From an uncultured archaeon (GTDB lineage Archaea; Altiarchaeota; Altiarchaeia; JAFGQM01): a stretch of 58,724 bases of DNA. The first letter of the stretch is position 1, and each line of letters starts with the position of its first letter. This document shows positions 35,492 to 58,724 of this stretch, in pieces. The position numbers and the translations under genes are program-made. The notes beneath the pieces were generated by a model. The model was not told the DNA's origin. It was given only the letters and a program-made list of their open reading frames with translations, and ran no database searches. The DNA lies in the NCBI GenBank assembly GCA_964619365.1, contig CAZUDQ010000002.1, positions 132,815 to 191,538 on the forward strand, given 5' to 3'.

Positions 35492-37183
35492 ATGAAAGGA
35501 TATTTACTCTGCTTTTTGCTCATTCTATTCTTAACCAGCTCTAGTTTCGGTGAAACTTGCAATACCTGTGAGGAATGCAACGCCATTGCTCAAAAGTCAG
35601 ATGTTATAATAAGCCTAAATAACGACATAAACTCTTCAAAAAATTGCATTACAATAGCTGGCAATAATGTCAATCTCGATTGTAACGGACACAAAATCTC
35701 AAGTCCGAACGGTTCGGCGATATTCATTAATTCCTCAGCGGGGGCAATCAGCATAAAAGACTGCGTTTTTGAGGGTGAGGATGGAAGTGGAATACTTAAC
35801 TCAGGACAGTATTCCTCGAGCCTTTCAATCAAAAATAACGAATTCAATTACAGTAATATCTTTCGCAATATCGCTCTAGAGCTCTTAGCTAGTGCAAAAG
35901 TAGACATAAGCGATAACAAATTTAATAGTGCAAGTAAAAACGATTTCATAAAGCTTTCCGGACCTTGGTCTGTTAGTAATGTAAAGATAGAAAAAAACGA
36001 TTTTGGACTTGGGGGATGTGGAGAGCTCCTAGCTAAAGTCTCCCTTAAATCTGGAAACCTGGTATACCAAATCCCAACAATCAAGGTTTCTGGAAAAGAA
36101 GTAAAATGCACAGAAACAACAAGACTCGAGCCTTCCTTAAGCTACACATTTTATACTAAAAATAATATCGCATCGGCAAAATTAAGTGACACAACAGGTA
36201 TTGGTATTGCCAATGAAAAGCTTGACTTTAAACTTGGAGAGAAAAAAATACAAAAGGTTTCAGGTTCAGGCGGCTCAACAGAATTCTTGGTTGATAATGT
36301 CCTTATAAAGCAAATGAGTCCTGAATCCAGTGTTAGTTTTGGAGGCAACTCTTATTTTGCCCCAAAGACTGTCAAAGTCCAGTTCAGTGATGAAGATTCA
36401 AAAGGTCTTTGTCGTATGATTGCCGGAAATGCTAATGGCAAAATAGACATTGTTTTTGTCCCAGTAGATATCTTGGATACTGCAGAACTCGAAAAGACCC
36501 TTAAAAGTGATTACATTGATGTTGAAGGGGATAGCACAGGTCTTCTTGGAACAACTGCGTTCTCAAAGATAAGTGACAAGCTCAAATTCTCGATTTATGA
36601 TGGAAACTCAAGTTATACGATTAAAGATCTTTCAGGGGACAGGATTCCTGATTTTACAAAAAAATTGGCTTCAGAAGGCTGCAGAGCAACTGTCGTCGTC
36701 TTTGTGACGTCTAGCTCAACGCGCTCCGGATATGACAGAGGAACTCATTCTATATTACTTTCAACAAGCTATGCTGACGGGTCAAGAACTTTTACCCATG
36801 AATTCGGTCACGTATTTGGTCTTGCCGATGAGTATGTAGAAGCATCTAAAGGCAGTAGTCCCCGTTTTAATTGTGTGGCGAGTCTTGAGAAAGCAAAAAA
36901 GTATTGGGGTAAGCTTGTGGGACAGGGCAACGGAGATTTCCAAGTAGGTTATTTCACAGGAAATTCAGAACTAAAGAAATTTGAGGGATTAAAGGGGTTT
37001 AACGGTCTTGATTATGATTCATCATATGGTTGTGCGTATGTAAAAGAAAACATTAGGCCGACAAAAAACTCCATAATGAACCACGCGACTATAATAACAG
37101 CAAGTGACTGGAAAAACGGGTTTGGCGCCGCAAACGAATTCCTCATAAATCTTGTCGCAAACTACCTTATTCAAAAAATATAA
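35492..37183 (+). CDS. secreted zinc metallopeptidase (M64-like) with N-terminal beta-helix-like domain
   Basis: Signal peptide; CITIAGNNVNLDCNGH; DIVFVP, HEFGHVFGLADEY, SIM. Confidence 0.8.
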   Translation: MKGYLLCFLLILFLTSSSFGETCNTCEECNAIAQKSDVIISLNNDINSSKNCITIAGNNVNLDCNGHKISSPNGSAIFINSSAGAISIKDCVFEGEDGSGILNSGQYSSSLSIKNNEFNYSNIFRNIALELLASAKVDISDNKFNSASKNDFIKLSGPWSVSNVKIEKNDFGLGGCGELLAKVSLKSGNLVYQIPTIKVSGKEVKCTETTRLEPSLSYTFYTKNNIASAKLSDTTGIGIANEKLDFKLGEKKIQKVSGSGGSTEFLVDNVLIKQMSPESSVSFGGNSYFAPKTVKVQFSDEDSKGLCRMIAGNANGKIDIVFVPVDILDTAELEKTLKSDYIDVEGDSTGLLGTTAFSKISDKLKFSIYDGNSSYTIKDLSGDRIPDFTKKLASEGCRATVVVFVTSSSTRSGYDRGTHSILLSTSYADGSRTFTHEFGHVFGLADEYVEASKGSSPRFNCVASLEKAKKYWGKLVGQGNGDFQVGYFTGNSELKKFEGLKGFNGLDYDSSYGCAYVKENIRPTKNSIMNHATIITASDWKNGFGAANEFLINLVANYLIQKI

Positions 37184-37187
37184 AAAA

Positions 37188-37793
37188 GTGGAAACCAAAC
37201 TAAAATTTTTAATCTGGATTCTTATTACATCAATACTTTTTAGCGCTTCAGTGGCGGCAATTGAAGTCCTTAAAGTGGGTATCGCTTATGACAATGGGGA
37301 ACTCAGTATCATAAACTCAAGTAAAATAGACCTCGAAGTTTTACCCGACAATAGTCTTGATGAGGCATTATATCTTAGTGCTCTAGAGCTTAACGGGACT
37401 GATAATTATGTGACTATCTCCTTAGAATCAAACAGCCTGCCACAATATGAGATTCACATAGAATATCCGATACTTGTGTATTATGATTATCCTGAGGGTG
37501 GAGGTGGAGTCAATGTGTTAAATAAGAGTTATGATTATTATCTATTTCCATACTACAATAATTCCACTACAATAGCCGTTTATAGTTCTGATAACAGTCT
37601 TCTAGACAGTTTTAAACTAGAAAAAACTCCGGAAACTGGAGATGAGATTTTGCCATATCAAAACAAAACTGAAGAAATTAAGCTTACTGAACAGGAAGAG
37701 GATTCTAACCCAATCTGGGTAATCTTTATTGCAATAGCTGCAGTCCTGATTGTTATGTTTATAATCTTAGGGAAGGGCAAGCTGAATTTTTAA
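37188..37793 (+). CDS. secreted, membrane-anchored hypothetical protein
   Basis: GTG start, signal peptide, C-terminal TM. Confidence 0.6.
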   Translation: METKLKFLIWILITSILFSASVAAIEVLKVGIAYDNGELSIINSSKIDLEVLPDNSLDEALYLSALELNGTDNYVTISLESNSLPQYEIHIEYPILVYYDYPEGGGGVNVLNKSYDYYLFPYYNNSTTIAVYSSDNSLLDSFKLEKTPETGDEILPYQNKTEEIKLTEQEEDSNPIWVIFIAIAAVLIVMFIILGKGKLNF

Positions 37794-37822: not shown

Positions 37823-38227
37823 ATGGTCGATATTAGAATAGAGTTTGTCCCGCTTGAAAAATTAAAGCCCCATGAGGAATTCACAGAGGGGCGCATAGGC
37901 CAGGTCATGCGCGAGATAAAAGAGTATGGCGAGCTTTGGTTCCCGATACTTGTTGATGCGCGCGATTATGTCATACTAGACGGCCACCACAGGACTGAGG
38001 CCTTCAGGCGCATGGGCTATGAAAAAATCCCCGCACGGCTAGTTGACTATAACGACCCGACAATTAAGGTTGAATCAAGGCGACCTGAAATTGAGATAAC
38101 AAAGGATATTGTGCGAAAAAAGGCTGTTTTAGGAGAAGTATTTCCACATAAGACAACACGCCACACGTACAAACTTGCAACAAAACACTTTGATTTCGCG
38201 CTAAAAGACATTCCTAAGAAAAAGTAA
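37823..38227 (+). CDS. ParB/Srx-fold protein resembling a single SerK/SbnI serine-kinase domain
   Basis: LKPHE, PILVD, ILDGHHR, VDY, FPHKTTRH. No HTH domain. Confidence 0.75.
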   Translation: MVDIRIEFVPLEKLKPHEEFTEGRIGQVMREIKEYGELWFPILVDARDYVILDGHHRTEAFRRMGYEKIPARLVDYNDPTIKVESRRPEIEITKDIVRKKAVLGEVFPHKTTRHTYKLATKHFDFALKDIPKKK

Positions 38228-38469: not shown

Positions 38470-39615
38470 TTACATATTCAATTCGAATATATCCCCTTCT
38501 ACTAAGATATGCTTCTTGCCCACTCTTTGTCCATCATATTTCACACTTTTGCCCCATATCCGTCCGAACTTAAAGTTCTTTGCAAAGTCCTTGTGAATCT
38601 TTTTTGCAACAGTTAGCATATTTGTACCTATCGGGACTACAAGGGGTTCAGAATCGGGAGTATCGATTGTATAAACACGCATAAGCTCTGAGATATTCCA
38701 GATTTCTTTTCTTAAATATCCAATGTTCTCATGCTCAGTAATAGAAACTGCAATCACTTCCATATTATACCTGCGTTTGATTATGCGCGTTATGGCTTTT
38801 ACTTGTTCTGGTGTTGCAATATCAATTTTATTAAGTATAACAAAGCCCTTCTTCCAGACTGTGCTTATGTCTATTGCGTCAACAAAGGTCTCAAGACCCA
38901 TACTGCGGTTTATCCTGATGTCAGCATTTAGTATGCCAAAATCACGGCAAGTCTCAATGGCGTCTTTCTTATCGCACGTGAGAAGATGTTCACCGAGTAA
39001 GACAATTCCGCCCCTTTCCTTCTTTTTTACGCGCACATCAGGACGTTCTTGGTTTACCCTTATCCCAGCGGCTTCAAATTCATGCATAAGACGATCAAGG
39101 CGTTCCAGGGGCTTATTGTCCATTGAAAGGAAAAATGCTATGATATCACTGTTTCGCATGACTGTAAGAAACCTCTTACCCATTCCCTTGTCATTAGCCG
39201 CACCAGTAATAAGTCCAGGAAGGTCAACAAGCTGGAGGGCGACATCGCCAAGATCAAGCATCCCTACATTAGGTTCGACTGTTGTAAACTCGTAATTTGC
39301 AACCTTTGGATCCGCATTTGTTATCTCGGAAAGAAGACTTGATTTTCCGGCGTTCGGAAAACCCGCAAAGACAATCTGGGCAGCACCCTGCTTTCTGATA
39401 TTTATTTCAGTTGCCCCGCCAGCCTTTCCTTTCTTGGCCTGAGCATCTCGTAGAAGGGCAAGCTTACGTTTAAGCATGCCGCGCTCCTTTTCAGTACCTT
39501 TATGTTTAGGAATTGATGAAACGTACTCTTCTAAGTACTTTATCTTATCGTTATCGTTTGTAGCCGCATCATATTTTTTAAATGCAGCCATAGTTTGAGA
39601 TGGCGCGTTTGGCAT
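38470..39615 (-). CDS. Obg/DRG-family GTP-binding protein with TGS domain
   Basis: PKHKGTE, GFPNAGKS, YEFTT, DLPG, NKID, IWGKS..GQRVG..H.L..GD. Confidence 0.93.
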   Translation of the reverse strand: MPNAPSQTMAAFKKYDAATNDNDKIKYLEEYVSSIPKHKGTEKERGMLKRKLALLRDAQAKKGKAGGATEINIRKQGAAQIVFAGFPNAGKSSLLSEITNADPKVANYEFTTVEPNVGMLDLGDVALQLVDLPGLITGAANDKGMGKRFLTVMRNSDIIAFFLSMDNKPLERLDRLMHEFEAAGIRVNQERPDVRVKKKERGGIVLLGEHLLTCDKKDAIETCRDFGILNADIRINRSMGLETFVDAIDISTVWKKGFVILNKIDIATPEQVKAITRIIKRRYNMEVIAVSITEHENIGYLRKEIWNISELMRVYTIDTPDSEPLVVPIGTNMLTVAKKIHKDFAKNFKFGRIWGKSVKYDGQRVGKKHILVEGDIFELNM

Positions 39616-39665
39616 ATTAAAGAATCTAAGCTTAATTTGAGAAATCCCTTAGAAAAGCTTAGTCC

Positions 39666-39712
39666 TTTATTGTGTCTAAGTTATAATAACAATACTCACC
39701 TTAGACAATAAA
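39666..39712. promoter_or_regulatory. imperfect inverted repeat TTTATTGTGTCTAAG...CTTAGACAATAAA in an AT-rich divergent intergenic region
   Basis: Perfect 8-bp core TGTCTAAG/CTTAGACA. A third TGTCTAA lies near 39805. Confidence 0.45.
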
Positions 39713-39895
39713 ATTCAGTCATACAATAAATTTTGTTGTGTAACATTCTTTTTAATAGCTTTTTTACATAAGTTTCTTTTAAATAAATGTTTTAAATAAC
39801 ATATGTCTAATAGCAACTAAGGGAATATACTTAATGGATTGGGTTTTTATAGGCGCTCCCATAATGATATCGGGTTAAAACCCGGGTGGAAGTAA

Positions 39896-40213
39896 ATGGA
39901 TGACGATCTTTTAGCGTTCTTTTTACAGGACAAGCCGGCACGTATCCTGCTTGTTATGGCGGAGTCTGGGAAGACTTATCCTGCCGATGTTTCAAAGGCT
40001 CTTGCTGCAACTTATTCTCACATTGTAAGGGTCATTCAAAAGCTTGAGATTTATGGTCTTATCAAGTCTACAAAAGAGGGCCGCACCAAGTACATTGAAC
40101 TCACTGATGCGGGTCAGGAAGTTGCCAGTGCACTTAAGTCATTAAACGAGGCACTCACACGCGTCCAGGAGCGTCTTGCTGACTCAAAAAGGCCTGCTGA
40201 AAAGCTTGAATAA
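39896..40213 (+). CDS. MarR-like winged-helix DNA-binding protein
   Basis: KP..IL, TYSHIVRVIQKLE..GLI...KEGRTKYIELT..G. Confidence 0.88.
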   Translation: MDDDLLAFFLQDKPARILLVMAESGKTYPADVSKALAATYSHIVRVIQKLEIYGLIKSTKEGRTKYIELTDAGQEVASALKSLNEALTRVQERLADSKRPAEKLE

Positions 40214-40266
40214 GCTATTTTTCTAAAAACTGCTGATTTTAACGAGTTTGTAGCTTTGCTTTTTTC

Positions 40267-40876
40267 GCATCAGTTTTCCGATGCGCATCAAAATTCTGAT
40301 GTTCCTGAAATTTTGCGAAAAATCTGGCCTTTTCAGACAATTTTTAGGCATTTGTGATCGCTTGACTTTGCCTATATAAAGACATCAAAATTCTGAGGCA
40401 CTAAACACAAAAATTGGCCAAAAAAGCCCCCTTGAGCATAAACCTATGTGTTTTGGGCCTGTTTTTCGCATAATCACGGGTGTTCGACGGGGGTATAAAA
40501 AAGCCTCAGAAAACTGAGGTAAGGGGTTCAAATGCATTATGGCTTACATCCTTATTGCCTCAGAAATCTGAGGCACCAAAAATAAAGCTATGTTACAAAA
40601 CTGCCAAATCTTGCGATTTTAGTCAAAACTGCCAATTTAACGCATCAGAAAATTGAGGCACTACGATACCTCAAAAAACTGATGCGAAAAACTGCCAAAA
40701 ACAGCCTGTTTTGAATGCCAAATACCCCAGGGTATTTGCATGAAATAATCCAAGCCATAAATGATATGGCCGACGCGTGTCACTTTTTAAAAAAATACCA
40801 TTGACTAGTGCTCATGGGGGAGGATTTAGCCTTTAATACCCCAGATTCAAGTTTAATCGCATCAGTTATCTGAGGC
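40267..40876. repeat. array of eight 18-bp palindromes, consensus RC[AC]TCAR-W4-YTGA[GT]GY
   Basis: Copies start at 40267, 40285, 40382, 40503, 40557, 40642, 40668 and 40859, in a region with no ORF. Confidence 0.9.
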
Positions 40877-40894
40877 ATAAAAGGAGAAACCCAA

Positions 40895-41314
40895 ATGTTT
40901 GATTGGCATAAAGCGTATGAATCTCAGGATCTAAAGGATATAGTCTACTTATTTTTAGACTCTACATTGCGGCAGGAAGCGGGCTTAAAAATCGTTGAAA
41001 TGTTACTTTTAAAGCCTGACGCGCGGCGCGGAAAAATTCTTGATGATTTAGGTGGGGAAAATGGTTATTCAAAAGCAACACTAGAGCGCACGCTGCATGA
41101 TTTAGAAACAATAGGACTCATTTCAAGTGAAGGAAAATACTTAAAAACAGGGCGTTATCGGGTCAATTTTACGCGCTTTTCAGGCTCGCTTTCAAGACTC
41201 TCAAGAACTATTAAAAAGGTTGAAACTGAGTCAGGGGATAAGCAAAAAAAGATATCAGATAGCATTAATGAAACAGATGTTAGTAAAGGAGAGTATCCAG
41301 TTAAATCTTATTGA
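40895..41314 (+). CDS. winged-helix DNA-binding protein (candidate binder of the palindrome array)
   Basis: SKATLERTLHDLETIGLI...GRYRV. AAGGAG SD upstream. Palindrome copy 8 ends 18 bp before the ATG. Confidence 0.75.
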   Translation: MFDWHKAYESQDLKDIVYLFLDSTLRQEAGLKIVEMLLLKPDARRGKILDDLGGENGYSKATLERTLHDLETIGLISSEGKYLKTGRYRVNFTRFSGSLSRLSRTIKKVETESGDKQKKISDSINETDVSKGEYPVKSY

Positions 41315-41315
41315 C

Positions 41316-41400
41316 TAAATGTTATTAATTAAGTATTAATTATAATATTTAATATAATATATCTTTTAGATTACATGTTATTAATAATACTAATTATTTT
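41316..41400. other. extremely AT-rich element (candidate DNA-unwinding element)
   Basis: 7 G/C in 85 nt by hand count. ATGTTATTAAT occurs at 41319 and 41375. Confidence 0.55.
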
Positions 41401-41457
41401 TCTCAATGTGAGGATAAACACGGGTTTTATATCCATGATATAACTAGATTTGTAAAG

Positions 41458-42195
41458 ATGACACAATGGAGTACTAATCCCTTTGATTTATTTATAAACA
41501 GTTCAAAGGTTAAGGAAACTTATATTAACCTGATTCATGACACTCATTCTTTAGTAGGTGAATTGATGTCAAAAAAACGAGAATATGAAGTAATGGCAGC
41601 TAGGCCTTCGGATCGGGAGTCTATAAAAAAGGCTAGAAGTCTACATTTTCAGATAATGATATTATTGTCAATAAATGCCGAATACCTTCTAAAAGCTATT
41701 CTATTGAAACGGGGTTATGTTATAAATCAGGTTAGTTTAGGTTATCAACCAAAATTCAATGAAGAATTCAGAACCCGTCTAGGCGAGTTTTCTCCAAGAA
41801 CCCAAGGAGATCTAAACCAATTGTATATAGAAGCTACACTAGCGATAACCCCAATATGTTCCTATACTGAAAAATTAATAAGTTTGGAGACCTCTAGTCA
41901 AATATTCGAAGAAAGTAATTCTGAGGGTTATTATGAAACTATAGGTACAATGCCCATAAGTACTGGAAATTATTTGGGTAAGTTTAATGAATTGTCTGCA
42001 GATAACTTCTTACAGGTTATAAAGAAAATTAGGAACCGCTACCCCCACAGGCTTGAGTCATATTCTGAGATACAGGGAATTCCTTGGTATTTATATAATT
42101 TTATATTATGGGCCGCACGAAAAGAATTTCCAAATTATTTTGAGGATTTAGAGTATGTGGGTAGCGATGATGTTAAAACCCTATTTGAGAGATAA
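41458..42195 (+). CDS. putative HEPN-domain RNase/toxin
   Basis: N-terminal AEYLLKA and C-terminal RNRYPH (R-x4-H). AT-rich coding sequence. Confidence 0.6.
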   Translation: MTQWSTNPFDLFINSSKVKETYINLIHDTHSLVGELMSKKREYEVMAARPSDRESIKKARSLHFQIMILLSINAEYLLKAILLKRGYVINQVSLGYQPKFNEEFRTRLGEFSPRTQGDLNQLYIEATLAITPICSYTEKLISLETSSQIFEESNSEGYYETIGTMPISTGNYLGKFNELSADNFLQVIKKIRNRYPHRLESYSEIQGIPWYLYNFILWAARKEFPNYFEDLEYVGSDDVKTLFER

Positions 42196-42203
42196 ATGTA
42201 AAG

Positions 42204-42530
42204 TTAAAGACCACAGAAAACCTTTATAAGACTTATAACTATAAAGAATAATCCCACATAATCAAAGTATAGTCTGTGTTCCCATAATTTATTAGATCTT
42301 GAAAGTATTACTGGGATGGCTATGAAAAAAATCCCAATAGCAAAAAATATGGAAGCATCGCCCATTATTTGCATATTTTCAACGAGTTTATTGCCTTGTC
42401 TATCAAGAGCAAGGTAATTCCCCAAATAACCAGCATAAACTGATCTTAGGACTAAAAGAACACTAAATAGGAATATAATTTTAGTAATACGATTCTCTTT
42501 AGCAACTATTATTTCTTCTTTACGGGACAT
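42204..42530 (-). CDS. hypothetical membrane protein (3 TM)
   Basis: Three hydrophobic segments; low GC. Confidence 0.6.
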   Translation of the reverse strand: MSRKEEIIVAKENRITKIIFLFSVLLVLRSVYAGYLGNYLALDRQGNKLVENMQIMGDASIFFAIGIFFIAIPVILSRSNKLWEHRLYFDYVGLFFIVISLIKVFCGL

Positions 42531-42919
42531 TTTATCGAGCGTTGAGTTACATCATAAGTTCGGTTACCTGATAAATCTGTTAATTTGGCTTTTGCAAAGA
42601 ATTCCTTGCCCAGATTATTGTCACAATACTCATCCAGTTCACTAGCTCCACAAGGAATTGTTCCTTTGTTGCATGAATATAATGGACCAGAACAAGATAT
42701 ACCAATATCAGTTTCGATAAATACCATATAATCAGCAAGTATATTAAATGGCGGTATATCTCTAAAATCAATGCCAGAAATTGTAAGTTTTTCATTATTA
42801 CATGTAACTGCAATACCTTGCGACTTTTCTATCTTTTGACCAAAATAAACAAGTAACAGTAAAGCTATTGCGAAAACAATAACTATTAAAATCCCGGAGT
42901 TTCCACGATTAGCAGTCAT
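42509..42919 (-). CDS. membrane-anchored hypothetical protein (possible class III signal peptide)
   Basis: NRG followed by a hydrophobic stretch, then a Cys-containing beta domain. Confidence 0.55.
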   Translation of the reverse strand: MTANRGNSGILIVIVFAIALLLLVYFGQKIEKSQGIAVTCNNEKLTISGIDFRDIPPFNILADYMVFIETDIGISCSGPLYSCNKGTIPCGASELDEYCDNNLGKEFFAKAKLTDLSGNRTYDVTQRSIKCPVKKK

Positions 42920-42938
42920 TTTAGTAATTCTGTAATAT

Positions 42939-43211
42939 CTATTTTACATATTTCTCAGGCAGCTCATCAATATGTTTCTGTATCTCTTTTCCGAGTTCTG
43001 TGAGAACATAAACGCGCCATCGCTTAGCTTCCGGATTTGCGCATTCTGCTATGTCCTGCTTGATGAAGTCTGCAAGTGTATGGCTGACATATGAAGAATA
43101 CATTCCAGTTGCCTTTGCTATCTGAGAAGGCACCATTGGCGTAGTCATACACTTTAAGATTTCTGTTCTATGTGATGATCTCATCACAAAGGAATAAGCA
43201 TTCCAATCCAT
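42939..43211 (-). CDS. small ArsR-like winged-helix regulator
   Basis: S.HR..IL...PMVPSQIA...VSHTL...C.NPEAK..RVY.LT..G. Confidence 0.85.
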   Translation of the reverse strand: MDWNAYSFVMRSSHRTEILKCMTTPMVPSQIAKATGMYSSYVSHTLADFIKQDIAECANPEAKRWRVYVLTELGKEIQKHIDELPEKYVK

Positions 43212-43344
43212 AAGCTATTTTCCATCTGCATTAAAAAATGGTTATTTGCTAACTTAATGTTGAGTAAGTGTTAGATTAGTGTTTTTTAAGATAAAACTTG
43301 AAGATAACTATGTGAATAGATAAAATAGTTTAAATTATCGTAAA

Positions 43345-54747: not shown

Positions 54748-57700
54748 CTATATCTTCTCAATAATGCCTGAACTGCGTTTCTTCGCGGCAAAAGTGACAA
54801 TAAGGAATGCTGCGATTATGACTGCGACAAGTAAGAGAACTGAGCGCGCGGCTGAGTCGGCAATCCAGTTTACAAAGTCGCCTACTGCGTCTGCAACAGA
54901 GCCAAGGACGCCTGCTATTCCTGAGTCTCCCGTCCCGCCTTTAGTCTCAACGTCAAGAAGGACGTAGTTTCCGGCGTATCCACTCTTATCGGCCATAACA
55001 GCCCATTTGCCTTTCTCATAAAGCTTAAAGCCGTCTTCATAGGAGAGTATGCGCCCATCAGGCGTGATAAACTGTATTGTCACCCCGTCAATCAGGTTGC
55101 CAAACTCGTCATAAATTGTGACATTAACACCGTCTCCGACAAATTCCCCGCCGATAATAATGATTTCAAGAGCGCCTTCAGTTGCGTTGACTTCGCAGGT
55201 ATCAACCATTGTGCCGTCACCCCCGCAGTTTCCGCTTTCACATGAACACTCGCACATGCGAGTCTTGAGGCCCCCAACGCATTCACTCCACTCTTCACAT
55301 ATCCAGTCAGCGTCGCATTCTTCTTCCTTCCCACAAGTCTCATCGTAGGTAAACTCACATGTTCCTGCAACACAGCTTGGGATAAAACATTCCTGGACGG
55401 GGCAATCAGAATCGGTCTTGCAATCACATACGTAGGCTCCTGGGACACACTCCCCTCCAGAGCAAAGGTCTCCTTGCGTACAGAAGTCACCGTCATCACA
55501 CGCACTTGTTGTTGGAATCTCTGCACACATACCAAGCTCGCAGACAAGGTCGATACATGGGTCGCTTGAGTCTCCGCAAGTGTTTCCTGATAATAGCTCG
55601 ATTATGCACTCCCCATTAACGCACTCAACTGTCGTGCAGGGGTTGCCGTCATCCGGGCAAGTTACACCCTCACAGGCATTACAGTCCTGTTCTGTTTCAT
55701 GGTTCCCTGAACACTGAGAGTCTTTCGGGCATCCGCATGAACAAGAGCGCGTCTGGGTTCCATCCTCGCATTCGCTCCATTCACCACACGACCAAGATTT
55801 TGAGCAACTTGGCGCGGGACAATGAACTGAGACTGTTGCTGAGTCCGTTATTGTCACGGGTTCTGAAGTGTCTGAAGTGACGCTAACACTTCTTGAGATT
55901 GAAGTTGTCGGGCAAGAAACGCCTTGAGTCCAAGCGTGATTATATGAGTCTCCAGAGTCAATATTTCTGTTATACATTGCCCCCCATGAGGTTGTTATTG
56001 TAACAGTTAACTCTGTTTCTCCTAAATTTGTTATTGTAAGATTCCAAGCAACGGTTCCAGTTTCGTCAATACTGCTTGGAACTGCCCTGAAGTCTACTGT
56101 GAAATTTGCATCGCCCGGAAAGACTTCAAGAAGGCCAAGATCACTTGATGAGTTGTAGTTGCTGGTGTTCTCAATCGTGCAGTTAAGCGTGTGAGTCATA
56201 TCCGGCGAAAGGGTCTTTACTCCTTGGCTTGTTATCTCCTCATCAATCGAAAGGACTGTTGAGAGCGAATCTGGGGTTCCGTTGCATGTGATATTAACTG
56301 GCAGCGTGTATGCCACAGGAGAGGTCTCATTAACGTTAAGTGTGACACTTGTTGCGGCTTTGTCTACGTGCAGGTACTTTGTGTCAATTGAGTCTCCAAA
56401 TGAACCTGTGCCTGACATTATACAAGTCAGGTTGTAGCGGTCTGTGTCAAGGACCCCAAGACTTCCTTCTGATATCGGTGTCCCATTGCGGTAAAGCTGG
56501 GTTGTTCCTTCTCCTTCTACAATTGTGCAGCTCGCGCTTACAAGAGTGCCGTAGGTTACAGGACTTGAATCGTTAAGAGTTACCGCGACTTCAGTTGTGT
56601 ATCCTGTGACTGTGACTGTCAAATCAGCTGTTGCAGACTGGGTTAGAGCGTCAGTTGCAGTTAGCCTTAGGGCGTGTTCGGTAAATATTGGAAGCTCTGT
56701 TGCGTTCCTTAGGGACTCTGATACTATTGTGAAATCTGTATTGTTAACCGTTAAGGAATCAATTCCCTCGCAGGCAAAGACTTCAATTGGGTAGTTTAGG
56801 TCCGTTCTGAAGAATACTGTTTGGTTAGTGACTCCTACAAACTGTGGCCCGCATCCTTGCGCGTCATAACTCGGGCACCCCTGGCATGTCGCGTCTTCGC
56901 GTGTTAATGCGGGGGTTCCAACGCACTGGCAGTCAGAACTCCATTTTGCGCTGTCCCAAAAGGTGAAGGGCTCATTATCCATCGTCTTAAAGTAGGAGAT
57001 GTCTGAAATTTCTGTGCAGCCTGAGTCACCTGTCGGGTAGCAATATTCCGCGTCGCCTCCCGCAAGCCAGTAGACATTATTAAGGCTTGTGAAGTTGTCA
57101 TCGCCTGCGATTCCTCCGGCGTCTCTTGTCGAGTAGACAAGATTTGAGGCAAAAGAATCATATATCCTTGTTCGGTATGAGAATCCTGAGAGACCGCCAA
57201 CGCTTTCAGTTCCGGCCACAGTTCCTGAGGCATAAGAGTCTGTTATTATTGCAGACTGCGCGTGGCCAAATATTCCTCCAACTATGCGCCCTCCTGCAAG
57301 ATTGCCGTCAAAGTATGAGTCATATATCCGTGCACTTGGAGCATATCCTGAAATCCCGCCTGTAGCGTATATACTTGAAACATTACCTCTTGCATATGAA
57401 TCCCTTATTGTCGATGATGAGGAATGACCAAATAACCCTCCAGCATAGTAGTTGCCCTTTATGTTTCCAACTGAGCTGCAATTTGTGATTGTCGCGCCGT
57501 AAAAGACTCCTCCAAGACCCCCTGTGTGGTGGTTTCTTCCCGTGATATTTCCCCGGAAGTTACAACGCAACATACTAGAACTGGCTCCATAACCAACGAT
57601 TCCACCCACATAATGGCTTGTTGAGTCCATGCGCCCACTTGCGTTAATATCGCTAAATGTCGCGTATGCTGCGCGCGTGGCAATGGCGCCTGCCATATAG

Positions 57701-58724
57701 CCTCCTGAAATATCATAATCAGTAATGCTTAAGTTCTTAAAGTTCTCGGTCACCCAGCCAAATAGGCCTCCTTTATAACTTCCGCGGTTGTTTATCTCTA
57801 GATTTGATATCGCGTGGCCTGCGCCATCAAGGTTTCCAAAGAACATGTACTCTGGGGCCTGCCAGGTAACACCAGTCATGTCAATATCACTTGTTATCTC
57901 ATAGTTGCACACAATACATGAGTCTGCCGCGGCTAAGTCATCTGCGTCAGTTAAGAGACATGGGTCATTAAGTGTCCCATTCCCACTCATGGCGTTGGGG
58001 CAGTCCATCGCTTGTGGCTCAACAAATGACGGGCAGGATTCGTCCGTCCCATAAAGTGTCTGGTATCCTGTAGTGTTGCAGGCATCACTCCACGGCGGGA
58101 AGCTCCACTCTGAGATTGGAGTATTGTTTATGTTAAAGAAGTATGATTCATCAGTTATTGCTGTGCATCCAGTGTTAGTTGACTGCGTGCAGAAGTTTGC
58201 GCGGTCTGTGCTCCTATTTAGCCAGTAAGCATTTGTGAGGTAGTTTAGGTCATTTGTTCCAAACATAGCCCCACCGCTTGTCGCGTAGTTAAGCGTTCCG
58301 GCTGAATAGACGTTTTGGACCTGCGCGCGGTAGCCGCGTCCGTAGATTCCGCCGACTTGGTGACCTCCGTTTACATTGACTAAGGAATATGAGTCTTTTA
58401 TGTGAGCGTAGTAACCGTATCCTCCGATACCTCCGGTTTCAAATCCTCCAGTTACGTTTCCTGTGGCATAACAGTTCTCAAAGCTTGTTGTGTGCGGGTA
58501 TCCAACAAGTCCTCCAGTGTAAGCAATTCCTACAATATCAACTGTTGCATAAGAGTTTTTAATCTGAGTGCCAACAGAGTGTCCAAGAAGGCCTCCGCGA
58601 TAATATTCGCCATTTACCATATCAGTTGTGGCATGTGAGTCTTCGAGTGTTGAGTAATACATTATCCCAACAAGCCCTCCCTGATGCGAGCTTCCTGCAG
58701 TTTGGGTGATATCTGCACTACAGT
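54748..58724 (-). CDS. large surface protein with GLUG-type beta-helix repeats, Cys-rich modules and C-terminal TM (5' partial)
   Basis: Frame is open to the window end. Repeated GGLVG/GGIFG; W.C.EWSEC and CDDG..CT modules; TM followed by KKR. Confidence 0.85.
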   Translation of the reverse strand, partial: CSADITQTAGSSHQGGLVGIMYYSTLEDSHATTDMVNGEYYRGGLLGHSVGTQIKNSYATVDIVGIAYTGGLVGYPHTTSFENCYATGNVTGGFETGGIGGYGYYAHIKDSYSLVNVNGGHQVGGIYGRGYRAQVQNVYSAGTLNYATSGGAMFGTNDLNYLTNAYWLNRSTDRANFCTQSTNTGCTAITDESYFFNINNTPISEWSFPPWSDACNTTGYQTLYGTDESCPSFVEPQAMDCPNAMSGNGTLNDPCLLTDADDLAAADSCIVCNYEITSDIDMTGVTWQAPEYMFFGNLDGAGHAISNLEINNRGSYKGGLFGWVTENFKNLSITDYDISGGYMAGAIATRAAYATFSDINASGRMDSTSHYVGGIVGYGASSSMLRCNFRGNITGRNHHTGGLGGVFYGATITNCSSVGNIKGNYYAGGLFGHSSSSTIRDSYARGNVSSIYATGGISGYAPSARIYDSYFDGNLAGGRIVGGIFGHAQSAIITDSYASGTVAGTESVGGLSGFSYRTRIYDSFASNLVYSTRDAGGIAGDDNFTSLNNVYWLAGGDAEYCYPTGDSGCTEISDISYFKTMDNEPFTFWDSAKWSSDCQCVGTPALTREDATCQGCPSYDAQGCGPQFVGVTNQTVFFRTDLNYPIEVFACEGIDSLTVNNTDFTIVSESLRNATELPIFTEHALRLTATDALTQSATADLTVTVTGYTTEVAVTLNDSSPVTYGTLVSASCTIVEGEGTTQLYRNGTPISEGSLGVLDTDRYNLTCIMSGTGSFGDSIDTKYLHVDKAATSVTLNVNETSPVAYTLPVNITCNGTPDSLSTVLSIDEEITSQGVKTLSPDMTHTLNCTIENTSNYNSSSDLGLLEVFPGDANFTVDFRAVPSSIDETGTVAWNLTITNLGETELTVTITTSWGAMYNRNIDSGDSYNHAWTQGVSCPTTSISRSVSVTSDTSEPVTITDSATVSVHCPAPSCSKSWSCGEWSECEDGTQTRSCSCGCPKDSQCSGNHETEQDCNACEGVTCPDDGNPCTTVECVNGECIIELLSGNTCGDSSDPCIDLVCELGMCAEIPTTSACDDGDFCTQGDLCSGGECVPGAYVCDCKTDSDCPVQECFIPSCVAGTCEFTYDETCGKEEECDADWICEEWSECVGGLKTRMCECSCESGNCGGDGTMVDTCEVNATEGALEIIIIGGEFVGDGVNVTIYDEFGNLIDGVTIQFITPDGRILSYEDGFKLYEKGKWAVMADKSGYAGNYVLLDVETKGGTGDSGIAGVLGSVADAVGDFVNWIADSAARSVLLLVAVIIAAFLIVTFAAKKRSSGIIEKI
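55245..55266. repeat. 22-bp dispersed palindrome, copy 5 (AAcACTCGCA-CA-TGCGAGTCTT), inside the surface-protein CDS
   Basis: One mismatch. Encodes KTRMCEC on the minus strand. Confidence 0.85.

Follow-up and report, generated by a model that had tools for sequence, protein, structure and literature searches.

Palindromes upstream of a lineage-specific predicted winged-helix gene in an uncultured altiarchaeote: a probable operator region expanded from three sites to eight

What does an array of eight 18-bp palindromes, confined to a single intergenic region between two small genes for predicted winged helix-turn-helix (wHTH) proteins, do in the genome of an uncultured archaeon? The array lies in a 58,724-nucleotide stretch of a genome labelled Altiarchaeota (GenBank assembly GCA_964619365.1, contig CAZUDQ010000002.1), which we refer to as the window and which corresponds to C2:132815-191538, C2 being one of the 17 contigs of the 1,208,397-bp assembly. 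An earlier account made from the letters alone (the sequence-only reading) had interpreted the array as a candidate replication origin independent of Orc1/Cdc6 or a centromere-like locus, either chromosomal or inherited from a captured replicon. Comparison of the locus with its counterparts in related genomes and metagenomes points to a different answer: the array is probably a multi-operator autoregulatory region of the gene that follows it, here called wHTH2 (the preceding gene being wHTH1), bound by predicted dimers of the wHTH2 protein, and its irregular eight-copy form appears to be derived by expansion of a region with three operators.

The eight palindromes are real and enriched far above chance. 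All of them were found at the positions previously given for them, with the 18-mers starting at 40267, 40285, 40382, 40503, 40557, 40642, 40668 and 40859 (start-to-start spacings of 18, 97, 121, 54, 85, 26 and 191 bp); they follow the consensus RCMTCAR-WWWW-YYGAKGY and together span 40267-40876. The 4-nt centre of the dyad was said to be always A/T, which is the case in 8/8 sites. The pattern CMTCAN6YGAKG yields 15 strand-matches in the window, corresponding to the eight array sites and all located inside 40268-40875, compared with a mean of 0.69 and a maximum of 5 matches in 100 dinucleotide shuffles of the window; the impression, originally gained by eye, that the window contains no further copy is thus borne out. 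Across the whole assembly, the loose dyad pattern is found at 15 positions and the strict pattern, with an A/T spacer, at 9, with 8 at the array in either case; the ninth strict match (C1:175517) falls within a 494-codon open reading frame (ORF). The 681-bp gap that houses the array (40214-40894) is, as had been stated, the longest non-coding stretch, in that no other gap free of ORFs of at least 70 codons is as long in the window part of contig C2. Two short ORFs within the array, of 50 and 58 amino acids, were rejected as coding because they overlie spacers that are unalignable between relatives.

The wHTH1-wHTH2 gene pair is syntenic within the family of uncultured salt-lake archaea that carries wHTH2. 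In five GTDB relatives, the spacer between the two genes is ~285-445 bp long and contains three dyads spaced 122 and 55 bp apart, the third dyad of one of them (G002) being one mismatch from the pattern. A scan of metagenome contigs provided 12 additional wHTH2 loci, 8 of which display three dyads at 121-123 and 55 bp, including one (L048) that duplicates a GTDB relative (G004). As for the others, L046 begins just 5' of the third dyad, L052 has no upstream sequence, and L053 carries the second and third sites, with one more dyad directly abutting. The most divergent wHTH2 locus (L055, on a 109-kb metagenome contig; 60% identity) has one upstream dyad and two downstream, at positions 665 and 813, 140-290 nt 3' of wHTH2; dyad placement is not identical across all lineages. 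Altogether, dyads lie directly upstream of wHTH2 in 5/5 GTDB relatives with the region assembled and in 10/11 metagenome loci with upstream sequence. Homologs of the protein encoded at 40895 were expected by the sequence-only reading to be accompanied by the same array, and they are: array and protein form a conserved, self-contained module.

Alignment of these regions (14 rows including this genome, representing 13 distinct loci: G000, that is, this genome, the 5 GTDB relatives and 7 metagenome contigs) revealed a common layout of three sites, A, B and C. From 5' to 3', CTATTAAAAA is followed by dyad A, ~37 variable nt, TGAGCTCAAA, ~33 variable and often TATA-rich nt, GGGGTATTCGAGCC, 2 unspecified nt, TATATAAAA, dyad B, ~22 variable nt, GATATATC, 5 nt, dyad C and, after a further 10-40 nt, the ATG of wHTH2. 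The A-B spacing is 121-123 bp and the B-C spacing 54-56 bp in 13/13 distinct loci with enough upstream sequence. The variable stretches between the sites are largely unalignable, with length changes of at most 1 nt; since the sequence has diverged and the length has been kept, the spacing of the dyads is under constraint. Sites 3, 4 and 5 of the window (40382, 40503 and 40557; 121 and 54 bp apart) correspond to ancestral A, B and C. Thus, the irregular spacing of 18-191 bp emphasized in the sequence-only reading is correct for this genome and misleading as an ancestral state, which consists of three dyads at fixed distances. A catalogue of 48 dyads from 16 loci, in which the search pattern itself imposed the half-site core C-M-T-C-A, contains 23 perfect 7+7 dyads and 11 hybrids whose arms differ at position 3/16, one having A and the other C. 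At the unforced outer positions, G (36 sites) and A (12 sites) are found at position 1 and C (40 sites) and T (8 sites) at position 18, and each position of the centre is A/T in at least 42 of the 48 sites. With 23 perfect and 11 hybrid members, the catalogue fits a protein site of the form RCMTCAR better than an obligatory hairpin.

The motif tracks the wHTH2 gene and marks no regulon. We searched 61 Altiarchaeota-labelled genomes (the class), of which 8, including this one, belong to the family and 53 do not. The strict 18-mer is present in 5 of the 61, every one of them in the family and every match at this locus, and is absent from the 53 genomes outside it. Within the eight family genomes, the motif is confined to the locus apart from approximately 1 background match per genome, similar to a reversed-pattern control. 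The five off-locus matches that were inspected each fall within a long ORF and are missing the outer G/C, and a regulon was accordingly rejected; the other nine (G001:C53, G006:C20, three in G007, G003:C14:5361, G002:C20, G002:C109 and G002:C71) contain G/C in their centres. The pattern named beforehand as the signature of an ordinary regulon, a motif upstream of many scattered genes, did not occur, 8 of the 9 strict matches in this genome being at the locus. The distribution of wHTH2 is equally narrow: the gene was found in 6 of the 7 other family genomes, with one weak match (E 9.5e-4) among the 53 class genomes outside the family and only 3 clusters at E<=1e-3 among 1.84 billion representative proteins, and no relatives were detected in the viral contigs, plasmids and phages searched. 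Given that the dyads are restricted to the wHTH2 family and that wHTH1 homologs elsewhere lack them (none near those in the 14 loci scanned outside the family), the sites follow wHTH2, not wHTH1.

The description of the array as flanked by two winged-helix genes holds without reservation for the upstream gene (HTH_27, E 6e-7); the downstream one stays below the Pfam threshold and is identified as wHTH through weaker matches, namely, to the wHTH1-family profile, to MarR/AF_0843-type proteins, which are its Atlas neighbours, and, weakly, to ArgR. In the profile-profile comparison with the wHTH1 family (hhalign, 70% probability, E 4e-5), the C-terminal two thirds of wHTH2 align to the recognition helix, wing and C-terminal helix, and the two proteins may be distant paralogs. 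Residues K60, A61, T62, E64, R65 and T66 in the recognition-helix region of wHTH2 are invariant in 6/6 sequences.

The surroundings of site C suggest how such a protein might act. In this genome, T-first TATA forms such as TTTTTAT are most frequent at -40 in a set of 434 upstream regions (37 versus 6 in the reverse orientation), and in 82 aligned promoters an A-rich (A/T-rich) element follows the start of the TATA box by 19-24 nt. In 12 distinct loci of relatives, site C is preceded by GATATATC and 5 nt, the ATG follows dyad C by 10-40 nt, the GATATATC box is self-complementary, and the A/T centre of dyad C is at +20 to +23. With a predicted transcript start at the 3' end of dyad C, 10-40 nt before the ATG, these elements would make up a coherent repressible promoter. 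Because the sites are dyad-symmetric, the binder is expected to be a dimeric HTH protein, and wHTH2 dimers would bind the 18-bp dyads through the half-site RCMTCAR and a 4-bp A/T centre. In the ancestral layout, A, B and C would be held at fixed distances of 122 and 55 bp, each just 3' of an A/T-rich TATA-like element; occupancy of dyad C, between its box and the start codon, would stop initiation by TBP, TFB and RNA polymerase and hence result in negative autoregulation, with dyads A and B acting cooperatively or controlling extra upstream starts. The identity of the binder, its dimeric binding, the transcript starts and the sign of regulation are, in this model, predictions from comparative sequence analysis.

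This genome would represent a remodelled version of the same system (Table 1), in which the core has gained ~170 bp on its upstream side and ~300 bp on its downstream side, along with five more dyads, the old promoter-proximal box has decayed, and a new A/T box, dyad and Shine-Dalgarno-like GGAG have come to lie directly before the ATG. Site A aligns with CTATTAAAAA and GCCTCAG..CTGAGGC of 12 other distinct loci. Site C, the promoter-proximal dyad of wHTH2 in relatives, is here separated from the ATG by ~300 bp, and dyad 8, ~18-19 nt before the ATG, repeats the element order of the relatives' site C; the segment in which it lies may serve as the present promoter. The reappearance of a dyad behind an A/T box near the ATG after the insertion suggests that the link between dyad and gene is under selection. 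The genome-specific segments comprise 168 bp with two abutting dyads 5' of site A and 284 bp 3' of site C. No other copy of either was found in the genome or in the loci of relatives, and an origin of the extra DNA from a mobile element or a miniature inverted-repeat transposable element was rejected for want of a second genomic copy of either segment. A perfect 17-nt inverted repeat connects 40261-40277 with 40675-40691, in the flanks of sites 1 and 7. Same-strain contigs from four DNA sequencing runs, at low depth, contained no length variants and are uninformative about strain variation; one contig of run X3 terminates at 40260 in 21 unrelated letters that resemble a sequencing adaptor. As a separate observation, the three AAAACTGCCAA copies lie within 100 bp (40597-40699), the genome total of AAACTGCCAA being 12; repeats of this type are absent from the relatives' loci, share AAAACTG with the right half of the dyad and may be duplication remnants or a second site.

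Table 1. Features of the array region and its two flanking genes (window coordinates)
Feature	Position	Strand	Description
wHTH1	39896..40213	+	105-amino-acid winged-helix protein; Pfam HTH_27, E 6e-7
Dyads 1 and 2	40267..40302		Abutting, 18 bp start to start; genome-specific, absent from aligned relatives
Ancestral site A	40373..40399	+	TATA-like TATATAAAG (40373-40381), then dyad 3
Decayed imperfect inverted repeat	40434..40489		Here GAGCATAAA ... GGGTGTTCGACG; in relatives GAGCTCAAA, ~45 nt, GGGGTATTCGAGC
Ancestral site B	40494..40520	+	TATA-like TATAAAAAA (40494-40502), then dyad 4; 121 bp after A
Ancestral site C	40542..40574	+	GATATATC box decayed to GCTTACATC, then dyad 5; 54 bp after B
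Extra DNA	40575..40858		Dyads 6 (40642-40659) and 7 (40668-40685); three AAAACTGCCAA (40597, 40625, 40688)
Replacement promoter-like region	40851..40894	+	GTTTAATC, dyad 8 (40859-40876), GGAG (40883-40886), then ATG at 40895
wHTH2	40895..41314	+	139-amino-acid lineage-specific predicted winged-helix protein; proposed dyad binder

Several observations weigh against autoregulation as the whole explanation. In none of the eight family genomes does the motif precede another gene, and a regulator with itself as sole target is unusual, which allows for a further function of the module. The proposed binder has no Pfam match above threshold (best E 0.06). The boxes directly before A and B have the plus-strand sequence TATWAAAR (CTTTTWAWATA on the minus strand), and it is on the minus strand that they better match the T-first TATA form preferred in this genome, which makes the direction of the starts at these two sites ambiguous. 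Finally, a conserved imperfect inverted repeat (GAGCTCAAA ... GGGGTATTCGAGC), found only in the loci of this family, separates A from B and is unexplained by simple autoregulation; it may be an RNA stem, the site of a second protein or a promoter element.

If the repeat is read as RNA, the main product of the region would be ~100 nt long and encoded between A and B, either a small RNA or a structured leader, transcribed on the plus strand from box A or on the minus strand from box B and ending at dyad A and a T5 tract; the binder would be the same, and wHTH2 and the RNA would form a two-component switch. We regard this as possible but unlikely. Such an RNA would explain why the regulator has no other target, and it would fit the TATA-like boxes of A and B, the minus-strand match of these boxes to the TTTTTAT form, and the fixed spacing of 121-123 bp. 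The two conserved blocks can pair (GCUC/GAGC in 11-13 of 13 sequences, AA/UU and CC/GG in 11-12 of 13 each), and folds of single sequences give the same long stem in most loci. However, the pairs of the hand-drawn helix are conserved and hardly covary, RNAalifold on the 13 A-B spacers returned only -1.3 kcal/mol with one compensatory pair among 7, and the folds have weak mean z-scores (plus strand, -1.29; minus strand, -0.89), so that support for an RNA structure in the spacer is weak. Moreover, this genome has kept the dyads while letting the blocks decay. Rfam 15 gave no match in the window at gathering thresholds and none at E up to 1 in the loci of six relatives, a relaxed search of 39600-41500 returned four chance-level hits (E 1.2-4.6), and ARAGORN found no tRNA in the window.

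A second alternative keeps the operators and changes the binder: the dyads would be recognized by wHTH1, or by both proteins, and the two regulators would form a cascade in which wHTH1 controls wHTH2. Throughout the family the genes are neighbours, and they are perhaps distantly paralogous; wHTH1 is a clear wHTH protein, with AF_1382 as the closest solved structure (E 6e-7), and its gene stops 17-20 nt short of box A in relatives (where its orthologs are ~20 codons longer than wHTH1 of this genome). However, wHTH1 homologs are found in 50 of the 61 class genomes, elsewhere beside unrelated neighbour genes, whereas the dyads occur only in the wHTH2 family; wHTH1 is thus not a likely binder, and we consider the cascade improbable. 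Its specificity may nevertheless have changed within the family, considering that identity between orthologs from inside and outside the family is only 24-40%.

The origin or centromere proposed in the sequence-only reading would require that the wHTH2 gene, the phased dyads and the inverted repeat together constitute a chromosomal replication or segregation site, of which the eight-dyad form is an expanded version, and that a lineage-specific wHTH protein replaces Orc1/Cdc6 or ParB. The protein gene and the sites indeed occur together, with the sites nowhere else in the eight family genomes, and spacing fixed within 1 bp points to a higher-order nucleoprotein complex. Between the arms of the inverted repeat, 9 of 13 loci have ~25 bp of A/T-rich, TATA-like sequence, which is absent from this genome. 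No origin was located elsewhere: the 176-bp region upstream of the full-length orc1/cdc6 gene has no obvious repeats, and the flanks of the orc1/cdc6 matches contain no convincing ones. Judged by title and abstract, none of the papers listed in a literature search on Altiarchaeota replication origins deals with origin mapping. Two genes upstream, a small gene with a ParB_N-like product is conserved in synteny; wHTH1 has a weak resemblance to AspA (E 0.003-0.005, ranked below AF_1382); and the sites of SegB and AspA are likewise described in PMC5120986 as lying upstream of their own genes.

Nevertheless, a replication or partition function gained no positive support from the comparison, which bears on it only indirectly, and we consider it decidedly improbable. 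A cumulative GC-skew extremum, which had been suggested as a check, was found neither in the window nor on the contig, with skew weak genome-wide and the power of the test therefore low. Coding strands converge on the locus (63% plus in the left 60 kb and 67% minus in the right 18 kb), the opposite of the usual origin pattern. As the sequence-only reading had it, no orc1/cdc6 gene is nearby: matches to TIGR02928 are restricted to C1:191299-192444 and C5:26287-27063, that is, to contigs other than that of the locus. Neither does an orc1/cdc6, parA or rep gene adjoin the array, and no ParA/SegA-type Walker ATPase or full ParB is encoded within 10 kb on either side; matches to AAA_31 are found at C2:1950, C1:202883 and C3:22253, the nearest on this contig being ~170 kb away. 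The region, with a G+C content (GC) of 0.39 versus 0.42 for the genome, is not AT-rich relative to it and gives little sign of a long unwinding element. The ancestral state comprises only three dyads that abut TATA-like boxes, the last of them 10-40 nt from the ATG, and the genes that come after wHTH2 in relatives are nadE, guaA and the like. The ParB_N match misses the Pfam cut-off, and wHTH1 homologs elsewhere in the class have unrelated neighbours. A captured replicon fares no better, since the chromosomal synteny upstream is kept in the family and wHTH2 has no viral, plasmid or phage relative; the rep gene and direct iterons of an iteron-type replicon are both missing from this locus, where the repeats are dyads in syntenic chromosomal DNA.

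A de novo search for repeat clusters, performed with exact 11-mers and hence weak (the array itself went unflagged), yielded, among its top clusters, those on C5 at 52 kb and C4 at 77 kb that were inspected and rejected as origins because they lie inside long ORFs. The 78-nt tandem repeats at C4:77023-78091 and the ~15-75-nt repeats at C5:52027-52342 represent repeat proteins rather than origins.

RNA hairpins, for instance, intrinsic-terminator-like minus-strand stems at A and B (a 7-bp GC-rich stem, a 4-nt loop and TTTT(T), the T tract being 4-5 nt), are a highly improbable explanation of the palindromes, considering that 11 of the 48 dyads are hybrids with arms mismatched at position 3/16 and only 23 are perfect, that site C and the five extra sites of this genome lack T tracts, and that there is no upstream minus-strand gene in need of termination.

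The wider neighbourhood is that of a chromosome. Upstream of the array are genes for an ABC1 kinase, a flavoprotein, an amino-acid kinase, RNase P p30, an epimerase, a ParB_N-like protein and a DRG-type GTPase, and downstream are those for tRNase Z, an M42 peptidase, Thi4, an amidase and DHQ synthase II. The order ParB_N-like, DRG (minus strand), wHTH1, wHTH2 is kept in the family, and five relatives share the synteny on the upstream side, which ends immediately after wHTH2; there, relatives have nadE, a small unnamed ORF and a guaA-like gene (names read from the translations, without a Pfam run). The ParB_N-like gene (37823-38227) encodes a 134-amino-acid protein with a ParB N-terminal-like domain only, scoring 25.4 bits against a Pfam cut-off of 26.3; although syntenic in the family, it was rejected as a partner of the array because of this score and because no ParA is encoded nearby. 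Between a small diphthamide-synthesis-like ORF and the ParB_N-like gene, two ORFs of 563 and 213 amino acids (35492-37793) have no Pfam match and signal-peptide-like or hydrophobic ends; as the flanking genes are adjacent or nearly so in relatives, this segment is a genome-specific insertion.

Directly after wHTH2, GC drops to 0.33-0.36 (versus 0.42) over 41001-43300, a stretch that looks like a variable island, given that synteny with relatives ends exactly there. It contains three genes without a Pfam family (41458-42195, and, on the minus strand, 42204-42530 and 42509-42919) and one more small wHTH gene, the third in this neighbourhood (42939-43211, minus strand), whose match to HVO_A0261_N is weak. 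The A/T-rich patch that follows the wHTH2 stop (41302-41395) holds three ~28-nt direct repeats (TAAAT.TTATT.A..) as well as an inverted repeat of 26 nt; it may mark the island's edge or belong to a terminator or promoter. Farther away, a 1304-codon ORF occupies 54748-58662 (minus strand) in a stretch of higher GC (0.47-0.48). Outside the window, C2:45001-55000 is another island or a giant gene: ~10 kb with GC of 0.33-0.38 and a strongly positive GC skew of 0.17-0.27, responsible for the only large cumulative-skew jump on the contig and with nearly all long ORFs on the minus strand.

What emerges is a candidate protein-DNA pair in an uncultured archaeal lineage with almost no known regulation, consisting of a family-restricted predicted winged-helix protein without a Pfam family and a precisely defined 18-bp site. 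The locus also illustrates how an ordinary operator region, expanded in one lineage, can take on the look of a striking 'iteron array'. Three features remain unusual: no other target is found, the spacing is exact to the base pair, and the inverted repeat separating A from B lacks an explanation; if the regulator truly acts only on itself, that repeat and the possible small RNA between A and B deserve attention. Were the origin or centromere reading to be true, it would mean an important Orc1-independent origin or centromere in what we take to be a DPANN-type archaeon.

How does the locus compare with known systems? Origins with origin recognition boxes (ORBs), the WhiP-linked oriC3 of Sulfolobus and iteron origins resemble it in combining several protein-binding repeats in a long intergenic region beside a wHTH gene. 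The present locus differs in having no adjacent initiator, skew signal or orientation switch and no evident AT-rich unwinding element; its repeats are dyads, as opposed to asymmetric ORBs or direct iterons, and it has no plasmid or virus relatives. AspA of pNOB8, a small dimeric wHTH protein, and SegB of the Sulfolobus chromosome, a site-specific protein, bind palindromes upstream of their own genes, and the review PMC5120986 allows that the SegB sites might equally be regulatory, so that centromere and operator are not separable there. However, those genes overlap parB-parA or follow segA, whereas the present cluster includes no Walker ATPase or full ParB, and the wHTH2 profile has no match to AspA at E up to 10.

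Archaeal repressors such as MDR1, LrpA, Phr and those of the TrmB type have operators between the TATA box and the transcript start. The placement of a dyad directly 3' of a TATA-like box and near the start codon is similar and would imply a block of polymerase recruitment; by contrast, the locus described here has three operators (eight in this genome) at fixed long spacing, an extra inverted repeat and no known regulon. Ss-LrpB of Sulfolobus solfataricus, according to PMC4046817, binds as dimers and cooperatively to three juxtaposed, regularly spaced palindromes in its own control region, deforming the DNA, with autoregulation dependent on concentration. As far as that account goes, this archaeal regulator with a three-site control region of its own is the closest described analogue. 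Ss-LrpB differs in belonging to the Lrp/AsnC family and in having an effector domain and further genomic targets. Its boxes are tightly spaced. wHTH2, unlike Ss-LrpB, has no Pfam family, second domain or other genomic site, and the dyads that it is proposed to bind are spaced 122 and 55 bp apart, much wider than those of Ss-LrpB.

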